Origin: a virus
IMG/VR virus record: IMGVR_UViG_3300037089_000131
DNA: 63,019 nucleotides
Strand: one strand, 5' to 3'
The notes under the pieces were generated by a model. That model saw nothing but the letters and a program-made list of their open reading frames with translations. It had not been told where the DNA came from and made no database searches. Position 1 is the stretch's first letter. Each line of letters begins with the position of its first letter. Of the stretch, positions 3,363 through 61,287 are shown piece after piece. A program made the translations under genes and the position numbers.

Positions 3363-3415
3363 GAATCCCTGGAAATCCCTGTTTCTCCGAGGTATAATAT
3401 GAGTGAGGAGAAACC

Positions 3416-3862
3416 ATGGAAACCATCCCCTACTCAACTACCTTGGAAGACCTTAAGCTCCCCCCCGCCAAGGAGCCGATGCGACTCGTATTCTCAGGCG
3501 ACTTTGACTACGAGGGGTACAGCAAGAGCTACCGCTCCTTCTGCCATCTGGATGTCTATTCGGACGGCAAGGACAAGCGGGTATTCATCGCCACCGAGCT
3601 TTCCCGAAACACTGGCACCAGCGTCACCAACGCCATCGAGATGGTGGCGGAGGCCGTCGAGAAGCATTTTGGGCTTCCCCACGTCTTCGGTCCAGATTCC
3701 CCCAAGACCAACATCCTTGTCGAGCACTATGACCAAGACGACCACTATTCCATAGTAGAATTCGAGAAGGAAGGCGGCTCCCTGCGGTATTATGTGTCAC
3801 CCGGATGGTGGGGGGTGGACAAGTCCGAGGTCGAGCGCCTGACTGGAGGACCCATTGCCTGA
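3416..3862 (+). CDS. hypothetical protein
   Basis: 148-aa ORF preceded by GAGGAG RBS. Confidence 0.5.
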   Translation: METIPYSTTLEDLKLPPAKEPMRLVFSGDFDYEGYSKSYRSFCHLDVYSDGKDKRVFIATELSRNTGTSVTNAIEMVAEAVEKHFGLPHVFGPDSPKTNILVEHYDQDDHYSIVEFEKEGGSLRYYVSPGWWGVDKSEVERLTGGPIA

Positions 3863-4385
3863 ATTAACTCCCTTAACCATAGCTATCTGGGATGACCCTA
3901 TTCTGTCCACTGTGTGCGACCTGGTGGGAGCCGACGAGTTTGGAGAGGGGCTGGAGACGCTCGGAAAGCAGATGCTCCTCACCATGGGCGGCGGTGGAAT
4001 CGGGCTTGCGGCCAGTCAGGTAGGGCTGGCAAAAAGACTATTCGTGATGAGACGGACGACAGCAGACCATAAGGGTGAGACAATCATTGCCGTCAACCCT
4101 GTCATAGAGGCATTCGGGGAGTTCAAGGCCCACGAGGAGGGATGCCTGTCCTTCCCCAATATCTATGGCATAGTCAGCCGCCAGCAGGAGTGTGACCTGA
4201 CCTATCAAGACCCCTTGGACGGAGGCGAATGGACAGTGCGGCTGAACGGATATGACTCCTTCTGTGCGCAGCATGAGATTGACCACTGCAACGGGATAAT
4301 GTTCTTCGACAAGCGGCGGATGCCAAAATCGCTTGGAAGGAAGGTATTAAAGGAATGGGAGAAGTCCCGAAGGGGGAAACAATGA
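3855..4385 (+). CDS. def: peptide deformylase
   Basis: All three PDF motifs present: GIGLAASQVG (GxGxAAxQ), EGCLSFP (EGCLS) and HEIDHCNG (HExxH). Confidence 0.8.
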   Translation: MPELTPLTIAIWDDPILSTVCDLVGADEFGEGLETLGKQMLLTMGGGGIGLAASQVGLAKRLFVMRRTTADHKGETIIAVNPVIEAFGEFKAHEEGCLSFPNIYGIVSRQQECDLTYQDPLDGGEWTVRLNGYDSFCAQHEIDHCNGIMFFDKRRMPKSLGRKVLKEWEKSRRGKQ

Positions 4386-4528
4386 CTTGGGATGAGTTCA
4401 AGACCGCGAAGGAAGAGTACCAAAAGGCAATCAAAGAGGTGGAGCCTGGCATCCGTGTTGTGAGGCTGGCGTTCTGGGCACGGGAGTGGGCTGAGAGGCT
4501 CTTTGCAGAGATTGATACTACGAAGTAG
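4382..4528 (+). CDS. small hypothetical protein (48 aa)
   Basis: ATGA overlap with def stop; below the 60-aa cutoff of the ORF track. Confidence 0.25.
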   Translation: MTWDEFKTAKEEYQKAIKEVEPGIRVVRLAFWAREWAERLFAEIDTTK

Positions 4529-4975
4529 CAAGTTGCCCGTCCCCTGTCGGCTTATAGGACCTGGTCGCCCAGGGGTCCGAATTCAACGGCAGGAGACAAA
4601 AGGCGGCTCTTTTTGGAAAGCTGCGAGCCTCATAAACTCCAGTGTCCGTTCGACTCGGATGGGGTCGCCTTTATGGGTAATCCAAGGAGGATTCGATGTT
4701 TAATGTCATAAAATCGGGAAGATACACAGCCAAAGAAACGGAAATATTTTGATGGGTCATTCTTGATTTAGACTCTAACATCGGACCACCTTATATGATA
4801 GTGGCGTCCAGAACCCTGTTACAAGGCGGTAGGCTTGTTGAATGGGCGGACGACGTACATTGTGTAAAAAGTGGGTCTGACTCCAATACTGATTAACATG
4901 GGTCTAAAGTTTGTCGGCGGGTAGCCTGACCAAAACACTACCCTGACCAATAATTTGACTTTTCATAGCTTTGGT

Positions 4976-5551
4976 ATGAAAAGTCAAATGGTAGGTGGGG
5001 TAAAAGTAAGACTTCCGCATATCTGCAAAAAGTGTGGACAGGCTCTAGCCGAAGATGGCAGTAACTTTCATACACGATGGAGCAGTGGGAAGAGATATTA
5101 CCGGTTCTTATGCCGCCCCTGCTTTAATAAACACGATAAGCAATCTAAACCTCGGTGTGGAAGGACCGAGGGAGGCTATGCACGAAGAAACCAGACCATA
5201 AATAGCCGAAGACACGCTAATGATGAAAGACCAATCATTAAGGACTGTAGGGCATCGGATAGACGGCATGGCCTTTCCTGCGACATTGACAGAGACTACG
5301 TGGAACTTTTGATTTCAACCGGCTGCCAGTATTGCGGGGCGACCCGAGAGGACTTGCATATTGGGCTAGACCGGATGGACAATGCACAAGGTCATCTGAA
5401 AAAGAACGTGGCTCCATGTTGCACAAGGTGTAATTTAGTCCGTGGAGGAATGCCCTACAAGGCATGGCTTATCGTCGCTGAGGCGATGCGAAAGGCTAGG
5501 GAATTAGGGTTATTTGGTGAGTGGGTCCCCGGAAACAAAAGTAGGCTGTAA
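4976..5551 (+). CDS. HNH homing endonuclease
   Basis: C-terminal HNH motif CQYCG...HIGLDRMDNAQGH...CCTRCNLVRG with two Zn-binding CxxC pairs. The track ORF starts at TTG 4955; the first ATG is 4976 and lies inside a perfect palindrome. The gene sits in an AT-rich island. Confidence 0.7.
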   Translation: MKSQMVGGVKVRLPHICKKCGQALAEDGSNFHTRWSSGKRYYRFLCRPCFNKHDKQSKPRCGRTEGGYARRNQTINSRRHANDERPIIKDCRASDRRHGLSCDIDRDYVELLISTGCQYCGATREDLHIGLDRMDNAQGHLKKNVAPCCTRCNLVRGGMPYKAWLIVAEAMRKARELGLFGEWVPGNKSRL

Positions 5552-5560
5552 TCAAGTTAT

Positions 5561-59607: not shown

Positions 59608-60209
59608 GAAGACGAAGCTTTCTAGCCGGGCTGCTTGCAGTCCCGGCAGTCGGGATGGGCATCAAGAGCCTTGAGGGGAGCACCCCGGAACTCAGACCAC
59701 CCCTCCTCTACCCCCATGAGTTCGTCGATACGAGCCACCACTTCCGCAGCAGCATGGAGTGCGACATCTTCCGGGCGCTCGTCATCGAGGATTGCAGCCT
59801 GCGCTCCTATGAGGACAGGAAGAAGATGGCAAGGGTCATGTCACCGGTCGTCAGCCAGCACATGGAGTACTGGCGGCAGAAGACCAACACCCATCCCTAC
59901 TTCGACGAAAGGATGGAAGTGTTCGAGTGGGTCCAGTTCCCGCTGTCTCAACTTAAAGAGCACAATGACACCCACTCATGGCAGAAGCTCTCCAACTCCT
60001 TAGCCATATTCGTGGCCAGCAAGATGTGGGACTCGGCTTGCCGCCTCCAGAACACCGAATCCATACTGACACAGGATATAAGACCCTCCGGGTCAGGCTT
60101 CCGACCAGGCACCGTCGTCCTCCCCGCCGACAAACCCGACCTGCGCATGATAGGATTCAACATCGTCACCTTCCGGCCAGAGAACATCAGAATGAGGAGA
60201 GCATCATGA
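59604..60209 (+). CDS. hypothetical protein with Tat-like N-terminus (N-terminal paralog of the previous gene)
   Basis: MRRRSFLAGLLAVPAVGMGIKS; ATGA overlap. Confidence 0.45.
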   Translation: MRRRSFLAGLLAVPAVGMGIKSLEGSTPELRPPLLYPHEFVDTSHHFRSSMECDIFRALVIEDCSLRSYEDRKKMARVMSPVVSQHMEYWRQKTNTHPYFDERMEVFEWVQFPLSQLKEHNDTHSWQKLSNSLAIFVASKMWDSACRLQNTESILTQDIRPSGSGFRPGTVVLPADKPDLRMIGFNIVTFRPENIRMRRAS

Positions 60210-60739
60210 ACCGAGAGACCGTCTACAACGTGATAAAGAAGGAACGGGACTACCAAGACATGAACTGGTCACACCTCGGGCATGACCCGCTCGTCAAGCA
60301 GTACCATTATGCCGCCCCGCACATCCTGATGATAGAAGACTATGCCAGGAAGGCACAGGCACTCTGGACCAAGTCCAAGGACGAGGTCGATGTCCTCCAG
60401 ACCATCGCCAAGCTGGCCACCATAGCCGTCCGGGCGCTGGAGGAGACTATCGACAAGGACGGGAAGACCCTGAGCCGCCCCGGCGTATTCATGGCCATAG
60501 ATGCCGAGCGGGCATCGCAGGACATCACGCACCCCCGTACCAAGGACAACGCTGGCCAGTACAAGTTCTCCGCCCCCCACCTGCTCTTGGTCGAGGAGTA
60601 TGCGGCCAGAGCACGGAACTGGTGGAAGAACGGCGACCGGGACGGCGTCATCAGGACATTCGTGGTGCTTGCGGCCATCCTCGTGCGGGCGATGGAAGAG
60701 ATTGACGGACCCGACCTGCTCTATGTGGGGCTGCGATGA
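60206..60739 (+). CDS. hypothetical protein with internal tandem duplication
   Basis: YHYAAPHILMIEDYARKA...IAVRALEE repeated as YKFSAPHLLLVEEYAARA...LVRAMEE. Confidence 0.45.
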   Translation: MNRETVYNVIKKERDYQDMNWSHLGHDPLVKQYHYAAPHILMIEDYARKAQALWTKSKDEVDVLQTIAKLATIAVRALEETIDKDGKTLSRPGVFMAIDAERASQDITHPRTKDNAGQYKFSAPHLLLVEEYAARARNWWKNGDRDGVIRTFVVLAAILVRAMEEIDGPDLLYVGLR

Positions 60740-60972
60740 AACGGCGCTGCAAGGAATGCCGACTGCACCTATGGTACTGCCCGCACTGCCGGGGCGAGTA
60801 CTGCTACATGGTGTTCTGCGAGTGCAACACCTTCGAGCTTCACCGTACCATGTGCGCTTGGTTCCGGCAGGCTTGCAAGAAGGACATCGCCATCTACCAC
60901 GCCCGAGCGGGGCGTCTAAGCGACGGAACACAAACGAGTTACAGGGGACCAAAGTTCGGGTCTGGAGGATAG
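60736..60972 (+). CDS. Zn-finger protein
   Basis: CKECRLHLWYCPHCRGEYCYMVFCEC. Confidence 0.4.
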   Translation: MKRRCKECRLHLWYCPHCRGEYCYMVFCECNTFELHRTMCAWFRQACKKDIAIYHARAGRLSDGTQTSYRGPKFGSGG

Positions 60973-60973
60973 C

Positions 60974-61249
60974 ATGCCGACGATATTCTGGGAGTTTCCC
61001 AACCCTGCACCCAGTAGGCTGGCAGGGGTTGGAAGGAACTTCGATAACGTGGATGCGGCCGAAAAATGGTTTAATGGGTGGAAGGACCGGCTGCTATCCA
61101 GAACCCAACTGGTATCAAGAGGAAACGTATTCGAGACCACGCCAGAGGGCTTTGCACTGGCTAAACTCTGTGAGATACCCGTGTTGGAAATCCCGTTCTA
61201 CTCCCTTGGTTCGACCGGTCCCACGGGACCTGCTGCCCCGGTAGAATAA
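60974..61249 (+). CDS. hypothetical protein
   Basis: 91 aa. Confidence 0.4.
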   Translation: MPTIFWEFPNPAPSRLAGVGRNFDNVDAAEKWFNGWKDRLLSRTQLVSRGNVFETTPEGFALAKLCEIPVLEIPFYSLGSTGPTGPAAPVE

Positions 61250-61257
61250 AATTTTTC

Positions 61258-61287
61258 TGAAAAACACGACTACCGGAGGTATTATAT
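61258..61287 (+). promoter_or_regulatory. conserved promoter-like element P2 (TGAAAAACACGACTACCGGAGGTATTATAT)
   Basis: Near-identical to P1 at 30871..30900. Confidence 0.5.

Follow-up and report, generated by a model that had tools for sequence, protein, structure and literature searches.

A sigma-70-like promoter core and candidate attenuator leaders at the tRNA operons of a huge phage and its relatives

We analyzed a 63,019-nt stretch of viral DNA, referred to here as the window, which carries two tRNA arrays. Each is headed by a full-length copy of the same promoter-like unit.

31163..33123, + strand: array 1, tRNA genes for Tyr x2, Leu x6 (taa, gag x2, tag, cag, caa) and Ser x3 (gct, gga, cga)
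61546..62733, + strand: array 2, His, Trp, His, Arg x3, Asn and Lys x2; probably cut by the window end
30858..30869, + strand: promoter 1, UP-like A/T-rich tract ATAAAAATATTC; A-rich at the same place in most of 20 aligned promoters
30870..30875, + strand: promoter 1, -35-like hexamer CTGAAA, 17 nt from TATTAT (sigma-70 consensus scan); variable in relatives
30880..30887, + strand: promoter 1, spacer octamer CGACTACC at about -25 to -18; kept in relatives 5' of tRNA arrays
30893..30905, + strand: promoter 1, -10 box TATTAT (30893-30898) and predicted start G (30905), conserved
61245..61262, + strand: promoter 2, A/T-rich tract and -35-like CTGAAA (61257-61262)
61267..61274, + strand: promoter 2, octamer CGACTACC
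61280..61292, + strand: promoter 2, -10 box TATTAT (61280-61285) and predicted start G (61292)

Array 1 is interrupted by an HNH endonuclease ORF at 32118-32600, and homing endonuclease genes are scattered through the tRNA arrays. Relatives have 21-25 tRNAs at the position of array 2.

The octamer recurs above chance, as the sequence-only reading had claimed. Exact matches start at 22409, 30880, 38244, 51724, 52650 and 61267, all on the + strand; shuffled sequences gave 1.4 ± 1.3, and 0 of 100 shuffles reached six. Among the positions first reported, 61267 and 38244 were correct, 30879 was off by one, and 52659 is the TATTAT box of the octamer that begins at 52650. Octamers were not equally frequent inside coding regions: four of the six are intergenic in a window that is 12.3% non-coding (p = 0.003). 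At these four (30880, 38244, 52650 and 61267) a TATTA(T/G) -10-like box follows after 5, 2, 1 and 5 nt, respectively, and the composite CGACTACC-N0-6-RGTATTA has 3 matches versus 0 in shuffles. The octamers at 22409 and 51724, missing from the first list, lie within ORFs, where xxC-GAC-TAC-Cxx supplies in-frame Asp-Tyr codons. Neither adjoins TATTA, so the claim that every octamer has GTATTA beside it does not strictly hold.

Two intergenic octamers precede protein genes.

38244..38262, + strand: short-spacing variant CGACTACC-AG-TATTAG (or CGACTACC-N5-TAGGGT), 5' of gene 38361
52650..52664, + strand: short-spacing variant CGACTACC-G-TATTAT, 22 nt 5' of ATG 52687

In both, the octamer is 3-4 nt closer to TATTA, and we rejected the treatment of the four intergenic sites as one class. 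The 38244 site is kept as CGACTATCAGTATTATGGT in one relative (L078), where the encoded protein is 63% identical. A search for relatives of the 52650 site found none.

The -10 box also occurs without the octamer.

3392..3400, + strand: GTATAATAT, promoter-like -10 box, TGGAAA-17-TATAAT, 5' of gene 3416
6710..6718, + strand: GTATAATAT, -10 box 5' of ORF 6734
29494..29502, + strand: GTATTATAT, -10 box (CCGGTGTATTATATAG) heading a predicted non-coding transcript of ~270 nt with a terminator at 29743-29778

GTATWATAT was found six times in the window, on the + strand only, versus 0.04 expected. Five copies are intergenic (3392, 6710, 29494, 30892 and 61279; 5/6 non-coding, p = 1.5e-4), and the sixth, at 14112, encodes K-Y-Y-I of a GIY-YIG endonuclease. 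The related elements noted earlier at 3389, 14052 and 29493 are real too, the second being a shorter AGTATTATGG box just 5' of ATG 14074.

The full-length copies at 30880 and 61267 share the A-tract and then CTGAAA, with 17 nt between the latter and TATTAT; 7 nt after TATTAT comes a G that is conserved in an alignment of 20 distinct sites. A sigma-70 consensus scan flagged CTGAAA-17-TATTAT at both array heads independently. From these sequences we infer the transcription start and the type of sigma factor and polymerase used. The unit CGACTACC-GGnnG-TATTATAT looks like the core of a strong promoter (spacer box, -10 and start region) heading each tRNA operon, and its spacer carries ACTACC, an extra box specific to the clade.

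Relatives, which are related huge-phage contigs from peat metagenomes, were fetched by exact-match searches. The same 21-mer stands 5' of every tRNA array in the fetched loci (38/38), as at both arrays of the window (2/2), an invariance that follows in part from how they were found, since these searches required the motif. Promoters picked up by their leader sequence instead show variant octamers (GAACTACC, TGACTACC, TAACTTTT) and an invariant GTATTATATAG; the leader-array layout is unchanged where the octamer is variant. In 185,579 bacterial species genomes there was one match, which is chance level. Presence in huge-phage relatives and near absence from bacteria therefore indicate a phage-clade promoter class, as had been proposed: the motif is non-random, strand-specific, intergenic, promoter-shaped and clade-conserved. 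It does not appear to be a general gene promoter, since the full motif heads tRNA operons, a role that the sequence-only reading had not noticed. An unrelated viral protein family contains CGACTACCTGTTGTATTATATGGCAT within its coding sequence.

A dedicated factor reading the ACTACC box is possible. One version, which we regard as somewhat doubtful, is that host sigma-70 RNA polymerase transcribes the arrays and that ACTACC(GG) is an operator for a repressor or activator of phage or host origin, which co-ordinates the tRNA operons with a few other genes (38361 and 52687). The distance from box to -10 is fixed in most promoters, including those sampled without the motif, two protein genes also have the octamer beside a -10-like box, one of these promoters being kept in a relative, and some relatives have ACTACCGGTGGT, a 10-of-12 palindrome. 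However, the palindromic character is lost in GGGGGT and GGAGGT versions, the spacing is off by 3-4 nt at 38244 and 52650, and no candidate DNA-binding protein was identified.

It is unlikely that the 21-bp core is one contiguous element for a phage-encoded sigma factor or RNA polymerase, its likeness to sigma-70 promoters being superficial. Contiguous conserved blocks of at least 20 bp are typical of phage polymerase promoters, which would suit this idea, as would the absence of the motif from bacterial genomes. Conservation covers the spacer box and the -10/start region, whereas the -35 region diverges widely between relatives (CTGAAA, CTGCAA, CCGAGA, CAGGTT); with so weak and variable a -35 hexamer, a pure sigma-70 reading fits less well. 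Yet the -10 box, 17-nt spacing, A-tract and +1 purine all suit host RNA polymerase, and the octamer can be replaced (TAACTTTT, GAACTACC) while the rest of the unit stays the same. No sigma, RNA polymerase or activator gene was found among the ~70 proteins of the window, which covers 63 kb of a genome of probably >200 kb. The dedicated sigma or activator suggested by the sequence-only reading gained no support from this ordinary sigma-70-type geometry and gene content.

Between promoter and first tRNA, each leader combines a short ORF and an antiterminator with an intrinsic terminator that adjoins the first tRNA. Leaders are roughly 170-290 nt long, and longer where extra DNA is inserted.

31005..31109, + strand: leader ORF 1, MKNLSSNSLSSLSYSNSLLSVLVLSDGWSDGWEG and stop, with predicted ribosome-binding site GAGGAAG
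31037..31043, + strand: leader 1 region 1, GCTGAGC, predicted by folding to pair with the beginning of region 2 unless a ribosome is stalled
31058..31088, + strand: leader 1 region 2, GCTTAGCGTCCTCGTGTTGTCCGATGGGTGG, 5' arm of a long antiterminator hairpin, in the 3' part of the ORF
31112..31142, + strand: leader 1 region 3, antiterminator 3' arm, overlapping the terminator 5' arm
31134..31162, + strand: terminator 1, GGCCGCT-GATGA-AGCGGCC and ATTTTTGTTT, ending 1 nt 5' of tRNA-Tyr
61382..61477, + strand: leader ORF 2, MRNRKPNPMQWQHKRNNFRPSYGGPPFAGVA and stop, with an in-frame upstream ATG (61325) giving a longer form; homologous to MRFRNPNPQMHWQPKRNTRS... of relatives
61423..61438, + strand: leader 2 hairpin from folds, GCGGAA-UAAC-UUCCGC, over Lys-Arg-Asn-Asn-Phe-Arg codons; possibly an RNA polymerase pause hairpin
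61447..61464, + strand: leader 2 region 2 from folds, CGGTGGGCCTCCGTTCGC, in the 3' part of ORF 2
61486..61515, + strand: leader 2 region 3, GCGAAC...GCCCACCG, pairing with region 2 (antiterminator) or region 4 (terminator)
61508..61542, + strand: terminator 2, GCCCACCGG-AACGACA-TCGGTGGGT and TTTTTGTTTT, 3 nt 5' of tRNA-His

The leader ORFs match the arrays that they precede. In leader ORF 1, 18 codons are decoded by array 1 tRNAs and 9/9 tRNA species are covered, which 0 of 12,770 in-frame CDS windows matched; homologous leaders occur in four relatives (L020, L025, L051 and L055). Four leader families were distinguished by their codons: Tyr/Leu/Ser; Ile/Thr/Gln; Val/Gly/Ala/Asp/Glu/Cys; and His/Arg/Asn/Phe/Pro/Lys/Gln/Met/Trp. 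Each is enriched for the amino acids of its own array only. Coverage was 13/13 tRNA species in L045 and 15/16 in L068, whose leader has 16 consecutive cognate codons directly after the ATG. Even the Gln codon follows the array, with CAA before tRNA-Gln(ttg) and CAG before tRNA-Gln(ctg). Scored on decoded codons and species covered, none of ~13,000 in-frame CDS windows equaled any of the five leaders tested. Substitutions between relatives remain within the cognate amino-acid set. Conserved non-cognate codons also occur, for example Asn in the leader for Tyr/Leu/Ser and Met-Pro-His in that for Ile/Thr/Gln.

The alternative pairings are conserved as well. For the paired structures, 95.8% of cells were paired versus 28-50% in slid controls. 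The leader 1 antiterminator gave 92-96% versus 26-52% and has 4-5 compensatory pairs, and terminator 1 shows a compensatory C-G to G-C change in relatives. In leader 2, region 3 covaries from GUCGC/GCGAC to AUCGC/GCGAU in relatives. In 4/4 families the antiterminator sequesters the terminator 5' arm and overlaps the ORF 3' end.

Taken together, these observations (motif statistics, conserved position, codon match between ORF and array, terminators, and alternative pairings with covariation) make it likely that a conserved sigma-70-like promoter combined with ribosome-mediated attenuation of the trp/his type governs the phage tRNA operons. The regulatory outcome is predicted as follows. The promoter at the array head would first yield a leader whose short ORF consists of array-decoded codons. 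The 3' part of this ORF would form one antiterminator arm, and the other arm would overlap the 5' arm of the terminator before the first tRNA. When cognate charged tRNAs are plentiful, the ribosome would cross the ORF and melt the antiterminator, so that the terminator forms and the array stays silent. When any cognate tRNA is scarce, the ribosome would stall at the regulatory codons, the antiterminator would form, and RNA polymerase would reach the array. If this is true, phage tRNA supply is under demand-driven feedback control.

Folds constrained by a ribosome footprint predicted antitermination only for stalls at codons 10-15 in window leader 1 or 5-17 in the L051 leader. For window leader 2 they predicted termination with the ribosome over codons 39-48 of the long form from 61325. 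With the ribosome on the stop codon, some fold models re-form the antiterminator around it. The predicted defaults differ: untranslated window leader 2 reads through, while window leader 1 terminates. Folded at equilibrium in full length, the leaders in families 2 and 3, like that of L068 (family 4), always adopt the terminator, and the switch must therefore be kinetic.

The favoring of the terminator in most full-length equilibrium folds would also suit leader ORFs that are incidental, with a short non-coding RNA or peptide running to the terminator and the arrays expressed by constitutive leakage or from other promoters, with no tRNA sensing. The GTATTATAT promoter at 29494 is likewise predicted to drive a terminator-ended non-coding unit. 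We consider this explanation very unlikely, as four unrelated leaders match their own arrays codon by codon, including the CAA/CAG choice, with no counterpart in the CDS windows, and substitutions keep to cognate amino acids. Furthermore, the terminators adjoin the first tRNA and thus leave no space for another promoter, and in each of the four families the 3' end of the ORF lies within the overlap with the antiterminator.

That the octamer repeats reflect chance, a coding artefact or a mobile-element or homing-endonuclease target site is hardly credible: two of the six are plain Asp-Tyr codons, CGACTACCTGTTGTATTATATGGCAT is coding in the unrelated protein family and the arrays hold homing endonuclease genes, but the octamer is enriched, strand-biased and intergenic, its position 5' of every array is fixed across divergent phages, and endonuclease insertions lie elsewhere, e.g. 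~130 nt 3' of the motif in L025.

Among the closest known systems, T-box riboswitches sense tRNA status and choose between terminator and antiterminator 5' of translation-related genes. However, a T-box binds one uncharged tRNA directly and has no ORF, whereas an ORF is present here; no T-box model matched. As in T4 middle promoters, where a MotA box is combined with a sigma-70 -10 (sigma appropriation), a phage-specific box replaces a good -35. MotA boxes (TGCTT) have their centre at -30, whereas the box here covers about -25 to -18 and is separated from the -10 by only 5 nt; the window proteins included no recognizable MotA or AsiA homologue.

The promoters resemble sigma-70 stable-RNA promoters, such as rrn P1 and UP-element tRNA promoters of E. 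coli, in the near-consensus -10 TATTAT, 17-nt spacing, -35-like hexamer, upstream A/T tract, purine start 7 nt downstream and tRNA products. They differ in the weak and variable -35, the ACTACC(GG) spacer box, a -10 extended 3' (TATTATAT-RR), the lack of a GC-rich discriminator and a sequence absent from bacterial genomes.

The leaders resemble the trpL, hisL, leuL, thrL, ilvL, pheL and pheM attenuators in having a short ORF with a ribosome-binding site and clustered regulatory codons. They also share with the amino-acid operon and pheST attenuators an antiterminator competing with an intrinsic terminator directly 5' of the regulated genes and, in the proposed logic, read-through upon ribosome stalling. 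As in pheM-pheST, a component of the translation apparatus would be under control. Unlike in amino-acid operons, the regulated genes are tRNA genes, in a phage; we found no earlier description of leader-peptide attenuation of tRNA operons. Whereas those attenuators carry runs of one or two amino acids, each phage leader draws on 3 to 9 different amino acids and represents almost every tRNA species encoded by its array of 7-25 genes. Also unlike them, untranslated window leader 2 would read through by default, and the four phage units jointly cover all 20 amino acids.

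The octamer CGACTACC was found six times in the window against 1.4 expected, always on the + strand, and six copies were reached by no shuffle. Four copies are intergenic (30880, 38244, 52650 and 61267) and are followed by TATTA(T/G) after 5, 2, 1 and 5 nt, respectively. The other two (22409 and 51724) lie within ORFs and encode Asp-Tyr in frame. Only 12.3% of the window is non-coding, which gives p = 0.003 for four of six octamers. The sequence-only reading had proposed that a recurrent octamer with GTATTA marks a phage promoter class. This was supported: the motif is enriched, confined to one strand, mostly intergenic and conserved in the clade upstream of tRNA arrays. 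The coordinates given in that reading were off by one base at most, apart from 52659, where the TATTAT box lies and not the octamer. GTATWATAT, the wider -10-type element, has six copies (0.04 expected), again all on the + strand. Five of these copies (3392, 6710, 29494, 30892 and 61279) are intergenic and lie directly upstream of genes or leaders; the sixth, at 14112, codes for K-Y-Y-I of a GIY-YIG endonuclease.

At fixed register, the 21-mer CGACTACCGGnGGTATTATAT matched only at 30880 (one mismatch) and 61267 (no mismatch), and the next-best site in the window has four mismatches. These two sites head the two tRNA operons, whose parts are as follows.

Parts of the two tRNA operons in the window
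30880, + strand: octamer of promoter 1, with its -10 box TATTAT at 30893
31005-31109: leader ORF 1, RBS/start GAGGAAG-N4-ATG
31134-31162: terminator 1, GGCCGCT-GATGA-AGCGGCC-ATTTTTGTTT
31163-33123: tRNA array 1, starting with tRNA-Tyr at 31163
61267, + strand: octamer of promoter 2, with its -10 box TATTAT at 61280
61382-61477: leader ORF 2
61508-61542: terminator 2, GCCCACCGG-AACGACA-TCGGTGGGT-TTTTTGTTTT
61546-62733: tRNA array 2, starting with tRNA-His at 61546 and cut off by the window end

At 38244 and 52650 the distance from octamer to TATTA is 3-4 nt shorter than at the two array heads. The site at 38244 can alternatively be read as CGACTACC-N5-TAGGGT, with the register kept. It is retained as CGACTATCAGTATTATGGT in L078, where the downstream protein is 63% identical (L-numbers denote fetched loci, mostly related huge-phage contigs from peat metagenomes). 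Six Logan contigs with this site were uninformative for phylogenetic footprinting because they are 100% identical there. No relatives were found of the gene that follows 52650.

The two array-head promoters have about 45 bp in common, ATAAAA..TTC(C)TGAAAA...CGACTACCGGnnGTATTATAT, and each lies about 280 nt upstream of the first tRNA of its array. A consensus scan independently flagged both as CTGAAA-17-TATTAT promoters. The TATTAT box matches TATAAT at 5/6 positions, as expected of a sigma-70 -10 element, and was invariant across all sampled relatives, including those sampled through their leaders. CTGAAA matches TTGACA at 4/6 positions at a distance of 17 nt in both window copies. In relatives the -35 position is variable and often poor, with CTGAAA, CTGCAA, CCGAGA and CAGGTT among 20 aligned sites. 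In the same alignment a G exactly 7 nt past TATTAT, where the predicted +1 is expected, is conserved, with an A-rich tract upstream. The predicted promoter combines sigma-70-like geometry with a clade-specific spacer box.

The sequence-only reading had further suggested recognition by a dedicated sigma factor or activator, and this is a possibility. The spacer box may be read by host holoenzyme alone, by a phage sigma factor or RNAP, or by a protein that binds it as an operator. The motif pattern had a single match in 185,579 bacterial and archaeal species (one genome each); as this is chance level, the motif is not a general host promoter. No gene for a sigma factor, RNA polymerase or regulator came up when about 70 proteins of the window were scanned against Pfam. 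Two known phage promoter types were compared and rejected. T4 middle promoters have a MotA box, (a/t)(a/t)TGCTT(t/c)A, which is centred at -30 and stands 11-13 nt from the -10; here TGCTT is absent, and the box that is conserved, ACTACC, is separated from the -10 by 5 nt. T7-like promoters have a conserved block of ~23 bp from -17 to +6, A/T-rich at -4 to -1, with a GGG start and a phage gene for the single-subunit RNA polymerase (ssRNAP). Our motif has only CGACT in common with TAATACGACTCACTATAG, its equivalent of -4 to -1 is GGGA or GGAG and not A/T-rich, and neither an ssRNAP gene nor an RNAP domain was found in the window. A reading of ACTACCGGnnGT as a palindromic operator was rejected, the palindrome not being conserved.

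The window has 57% G+C, and its genes lie nearly all on the + strand. At the nucleotide level, a 10-kb test segment (29000-39000 of the window) matched none of 50,697 deposited phages. An 817-aa structural protein (909-3362) has homologues, 42-43% identical, on IMG/VR contigs as long as 317 kb; against cultured phages, where it was the one protein tried, it gave only remote matches, to PA5oct-like jumbo phages. By these comparisons the window belongs to a huge phage that is uncultured, with relatives in peat-bog metagenomes.

To sample the motif in relatives, we scanned IMG/VR and JGI metagenome contigs for the exact pattern. An unrelated, widespread viral coding family containing CGACTACCTGTTGTATTATATGGCAT, with TG instead of GG after the octamer, was set aside. 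This family (L014-L016, L018, L019, L022 and others) is a source of false positives for motif searches. After its removal 20 distinct motif sites were left; for 16 of them the fetched DNA continues into a tRNA array. At a seventeenth site, in L027, the Ile/Thr/Gln leader is present and the locus ends before any tRNA. The motif was upstream of 38/38 arrays in the loci of this clade, a biased count since most loci were fetched through the motif. Its invariance is likewise partly produced by exact-match searching.

A motif-independent sample was obtained by reaching promoters through the leader pattern of the Val/Gly/Ala/Asp/Glu/Cys arrays. The five distinct promoters were CGACTACCGGGGG, TGACTACCGGAGG, GAACTACCGACAG (in two distinct contexts) and TAACTTTTGGTGG. 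Despite these octamer variants, all five continue with an invariant GTATTATATAG, which makes the extended -10/start region the constant hallmark of the promoter class. ACTACC is usually, not always, kept at a fixed distance, and the leader-array layout is unchanged where the octamer differs. Other leader- or tRNA-based searches for motif-independent arrays returned known loci only, or nothing. CGACTACC was absent from the structural-gene loci of distant relatives fetched via the 817-aa protein. In relatives, CnACTTTCTGnGGTATTATAT promoters were also found, for example, at an HNH gene inside an array and at a divergent gene. The HNH gene within the L069 array is served by a CAACTTTCTGAGGTATTATAT promoter of its own, and in L025 promoter and leader ORF are split by an insertion of 1.4 kb.

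A short ORF lies upstream of each terminator, and its composition mirrors the array. Homologous leader ORFs of 23-36 codons, the short ORF expected of an attenuator, occur in all four families of operon, which jointly cover all 20 amino acids.

Leader peptides and the arrays that they precede
Family 1, Tyr/Leu/Ser array: MKNLSSNSLSSLSYSNSLLSVLVLSDGWSDGWEG (window leader 1); MNSLSYNSSSLSYSSSLLSSSLVLSDGWNG (L051)
Family 2, Ile/Thr/Gln array: MLTITMPHTQTQTTISSGGGACLA
Family 3, Val/Gly/Ala/Asp/Glu/Cys array: MLALHISEADVIAAVAAGCEGDTSPSGGAG
Family 4, His/Arg/Asn/Phe/Pro/Lys/Gln/Met/Trp array: MRFRNPNPQMHWQPKRNTRS... (relatives); MRNRKPNPMQWQHKRNNFRP... (window leader 2)

The amino-acid enrichment of each leader is limited to the set of its own array, as regulatory codons should be. 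Leader codons covered 9/9, 10/10, 5/5, 13/13 and 15/16 of the tRNA species in the respective arrays. Window leader 1, with all six Leu codons and five Ser codons, covers 9/9 species; the leader of L045 covers 13/13 and that of L068 15/16. In L068 the ATG and the following 16 codons are all cognate. The match extends to single anticodons. With a single exception, the Gln codons of the Ile/Thr/Gln leaders are CAA, and the arrays encode tRNA-Gln(ttg); in family 4 the leaders have CAG and the arrays tRNA-Gln(ctg). The leaders of L045 and L048 contain ATA, and tRNA-Ile(tat) is present in the L048 array. None of about 13,000 in-frame windows of phage CDS equalled any of the five leaders in both decoded codons and species covered. 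Substitutions among homologous leaders remain inside the cognate amino-acid set.

Array 1 contains only class II tRNAs, with a long variable arm (Tyr, Leu and Ser); the operons are sorted by tRNA type. Its second tRNA-Tyr (31405-31489) is a marginal match to the Rfam tRNA-Sec model (47.6 bits, threshold 47) and is Tyr(gta) according to ARAGORN. In the Ile/Thr/Gln operons of L017, L028 and L043 a conserved ORF of ~120 aa, about 340-715 nt after the motif, lies between the attenuator terminator and the first tRNA, and would therefore be co-regulated with the tRNAs. Its match to DUF6915 (26.4 bits) is just under the Pfam threshold of 27.

An intrinsic terminator lies between leader ORF and tRNA genes, as in attenuators, and shows compensatory changes in relatives. 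Because the terminator abuts the first tRNA, there is no space for another promoter, and transcription of the array would have to be by read-through. In leader 2, CGGUGGGC (61447-61454, within the ORF) and the 3' arm of the terminator, CGGUGGG, compete for CCCACCG. In footprint-constrained folds of leader 2 (long ORF from 61325), a ribosome up to codon 38 gave the antiterminator and a ribosome over codons 39-48 gave the terminator. The local model of leader 1 formed the terminator when no ribosome was present and switched to the antiterminator only when the stall was at codons 10-15 (TCG TCG CTG AGC TAT AGT); from codon 16 to the stop it gave the terminator again. The L051 model predicted antitermination for stalls at codons 5-17.

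Full-length equilibrium folds always gave the terminator in families 2 and 3 and in L068 (family 4). This switch model, which fails where the terminator always wins, was replaced by folds of the transcript cut before the 3' arm of the terminator. In the cut transcripts an antiterminator sequesters the terminator 5' arm in 4/4 families, and it is disrupted by a ribosome on the 3' part of the ORF. The constrained and cut folds, equilibrium approximations of a kinetic process, point together with covariation to a mutually exclusive antiterminator. In family 1, 95.8% of cells are paired, compared with 28-50% with slid partners; four pairs have changed on both sides, and the extension into the terminator arm is maintained. 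Families 2-4 have compensatory changes in terminators and inner helices. The conserved peptide tails (..GGGAC.., ..DTSPSGG.., ..VLSDGW.. and ..GPP.AG) coincide with RNA arms. A scan of the whole window at Rfam gathering thresholds returned tRNA models only and no family in the leaders. A T-box riboswitch (specifier loop, T-box sequence, RF00230) was accordingly rejected, having no Rfam match in the window.

The two arrays in the window hold 20 tRNA genes. Genes for RNA/tRNA repair and translation (6961-8058, 9210-10667, 46212-47084, 56672-57637 and 3855-4385) encode PNKP (kinase plus phosphatase), an Rnl1-type RNA ligase, a Thg1-like tRNA-His guanylyltransferase, an RlaP nucleotidyltransferase and a peptide deformylase. 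The presence of the tRNA-repair set beside regulated arrays is consistent with a tRNA-centred counter-defence or arms race. Other genes include ThyX, dCMP deaminase and several homing-endonuclease-like ORFs. The latter (GIY-YIG, HNH, NUMOD3; 14074-14775, 32118-32600 and 42694-43347) sit in lower-GC islands, one of them within tRNA array 1. On the minority strand, 33461-35932 (-) encodes a vault-like protein of 823 aa, with a Major Vault Protein shoulder (E = 1.5e-23) and a Vault_3 repeat (7e-11). An 811-aa homologue is at the same place in relatives.

Several further elements were seen in the window. At 29494-29778 (+), a GTATTATAT promoter heads a unit of ~270 nt with no convincing ORF. The unit has a direct repeat, GACGTTTCCGGGACACG, at 29521 and 29582, a strong terminator, GGGGGAGCACAGGCTCCCCC plus a T-tract, and a fold z-score of -4.2. 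It had no Rfam match, was absent from the fetched relatives, and is a candidate phage small RNA. On the minus strand, GACTACC (29448-29454) lies 7 nt upstream of TATATG, a poor -10, and downstream of TTTTCTGG. It fronts a divergent papain-like protease gene (28587-29402); its spacing differs from that of the main motif, and the site is perhaps a weaker version of this type of promoter. A promoter-like site of similar flavour, ATAAAATTTCATGATTTTCCTGTGAAATCCGGTAATATAT, followed by GGAGGG and ATG, is present at 48100-48160. A 5'-UTR element, CCAACCGACTTTAAGC...AGTCGGnGGnCTTAGAGG, is conserved before a 315-aa zinc-ribbon gene (window 38290-38360; L078, 2900-3000; L077, 2940-3000). It persists even in one relative where protein identity is down to 45% and tRNAs stand in the place of the promoter. 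In this UTR CUUUAAG is able to pair with CUUAGAG, which overlaps the ribosome-binding site, and this pairing suggests a structure for translational control.

From its sequence context, the motif is the predicted promoter core of attenuator-controlled tRNA operons, in which a ribosome stalled on the leader ORF would cause read-through into the array. All that is said here of transcription and regulation is predicted from sequence. Arrays of tRNA genes are common in phages, above all in huge ones, and their purpose is debated: codon compensation, host independence and escape from tRNA-cleaving defences have been put forward. To our knowledge, almost nothing is known of how these arrays are regulated. 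We lean, with moderate confidence, towards the following model. A clade of huge peat-soil phages would carry ~60 tRNA genes in four operons covering all 20 amino acids, each with the same clade-specific promoter and an attenuator whose ORF is a codon-by-codon 'test strip'. Ribosome speed on this strip would gauge which tRNAs are missing, so that only needed arrays are transcribed. Possible causes of a shortfall are codon-usage mismatch, host shut-off and anticodon-nuclease defence, and the ACTACC box would be the site of a putative phage factor that co-ordinates the four operons.

A sensor that ties transcription of an array to the availability of its own tRNAs would make tRNA supply a regulated, demand-driven resource. 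Leader codon swaps would offer a genetic handle on when phage tRNAs are needed, and the promoter consensus would be of practical use for annotating the clade's tRNA operons. In full texts that include few subscription journals, we came across no account of tRNA genes or arrays controlled by leader-peptide attenuation and no paper pairing 'tRNA array' with 'leader peptide'. If the model is true, these operons would be the first case of tRNA genes under ribosome-mediated attenuation and would contain the first multi-tRNA sensor of the kind, and classical attenuation would widen to a new target class and to multi-species sensing. The mechanism is classical; the target, tRNA genes, and the multi-tRNA sensing would be new. 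As in the trp, his, leu and pheM attenuators, a stalled ribosome would give read-through. Unlike those attenuators, the phage units would act on tRNA genes and survey many tRNA species together.
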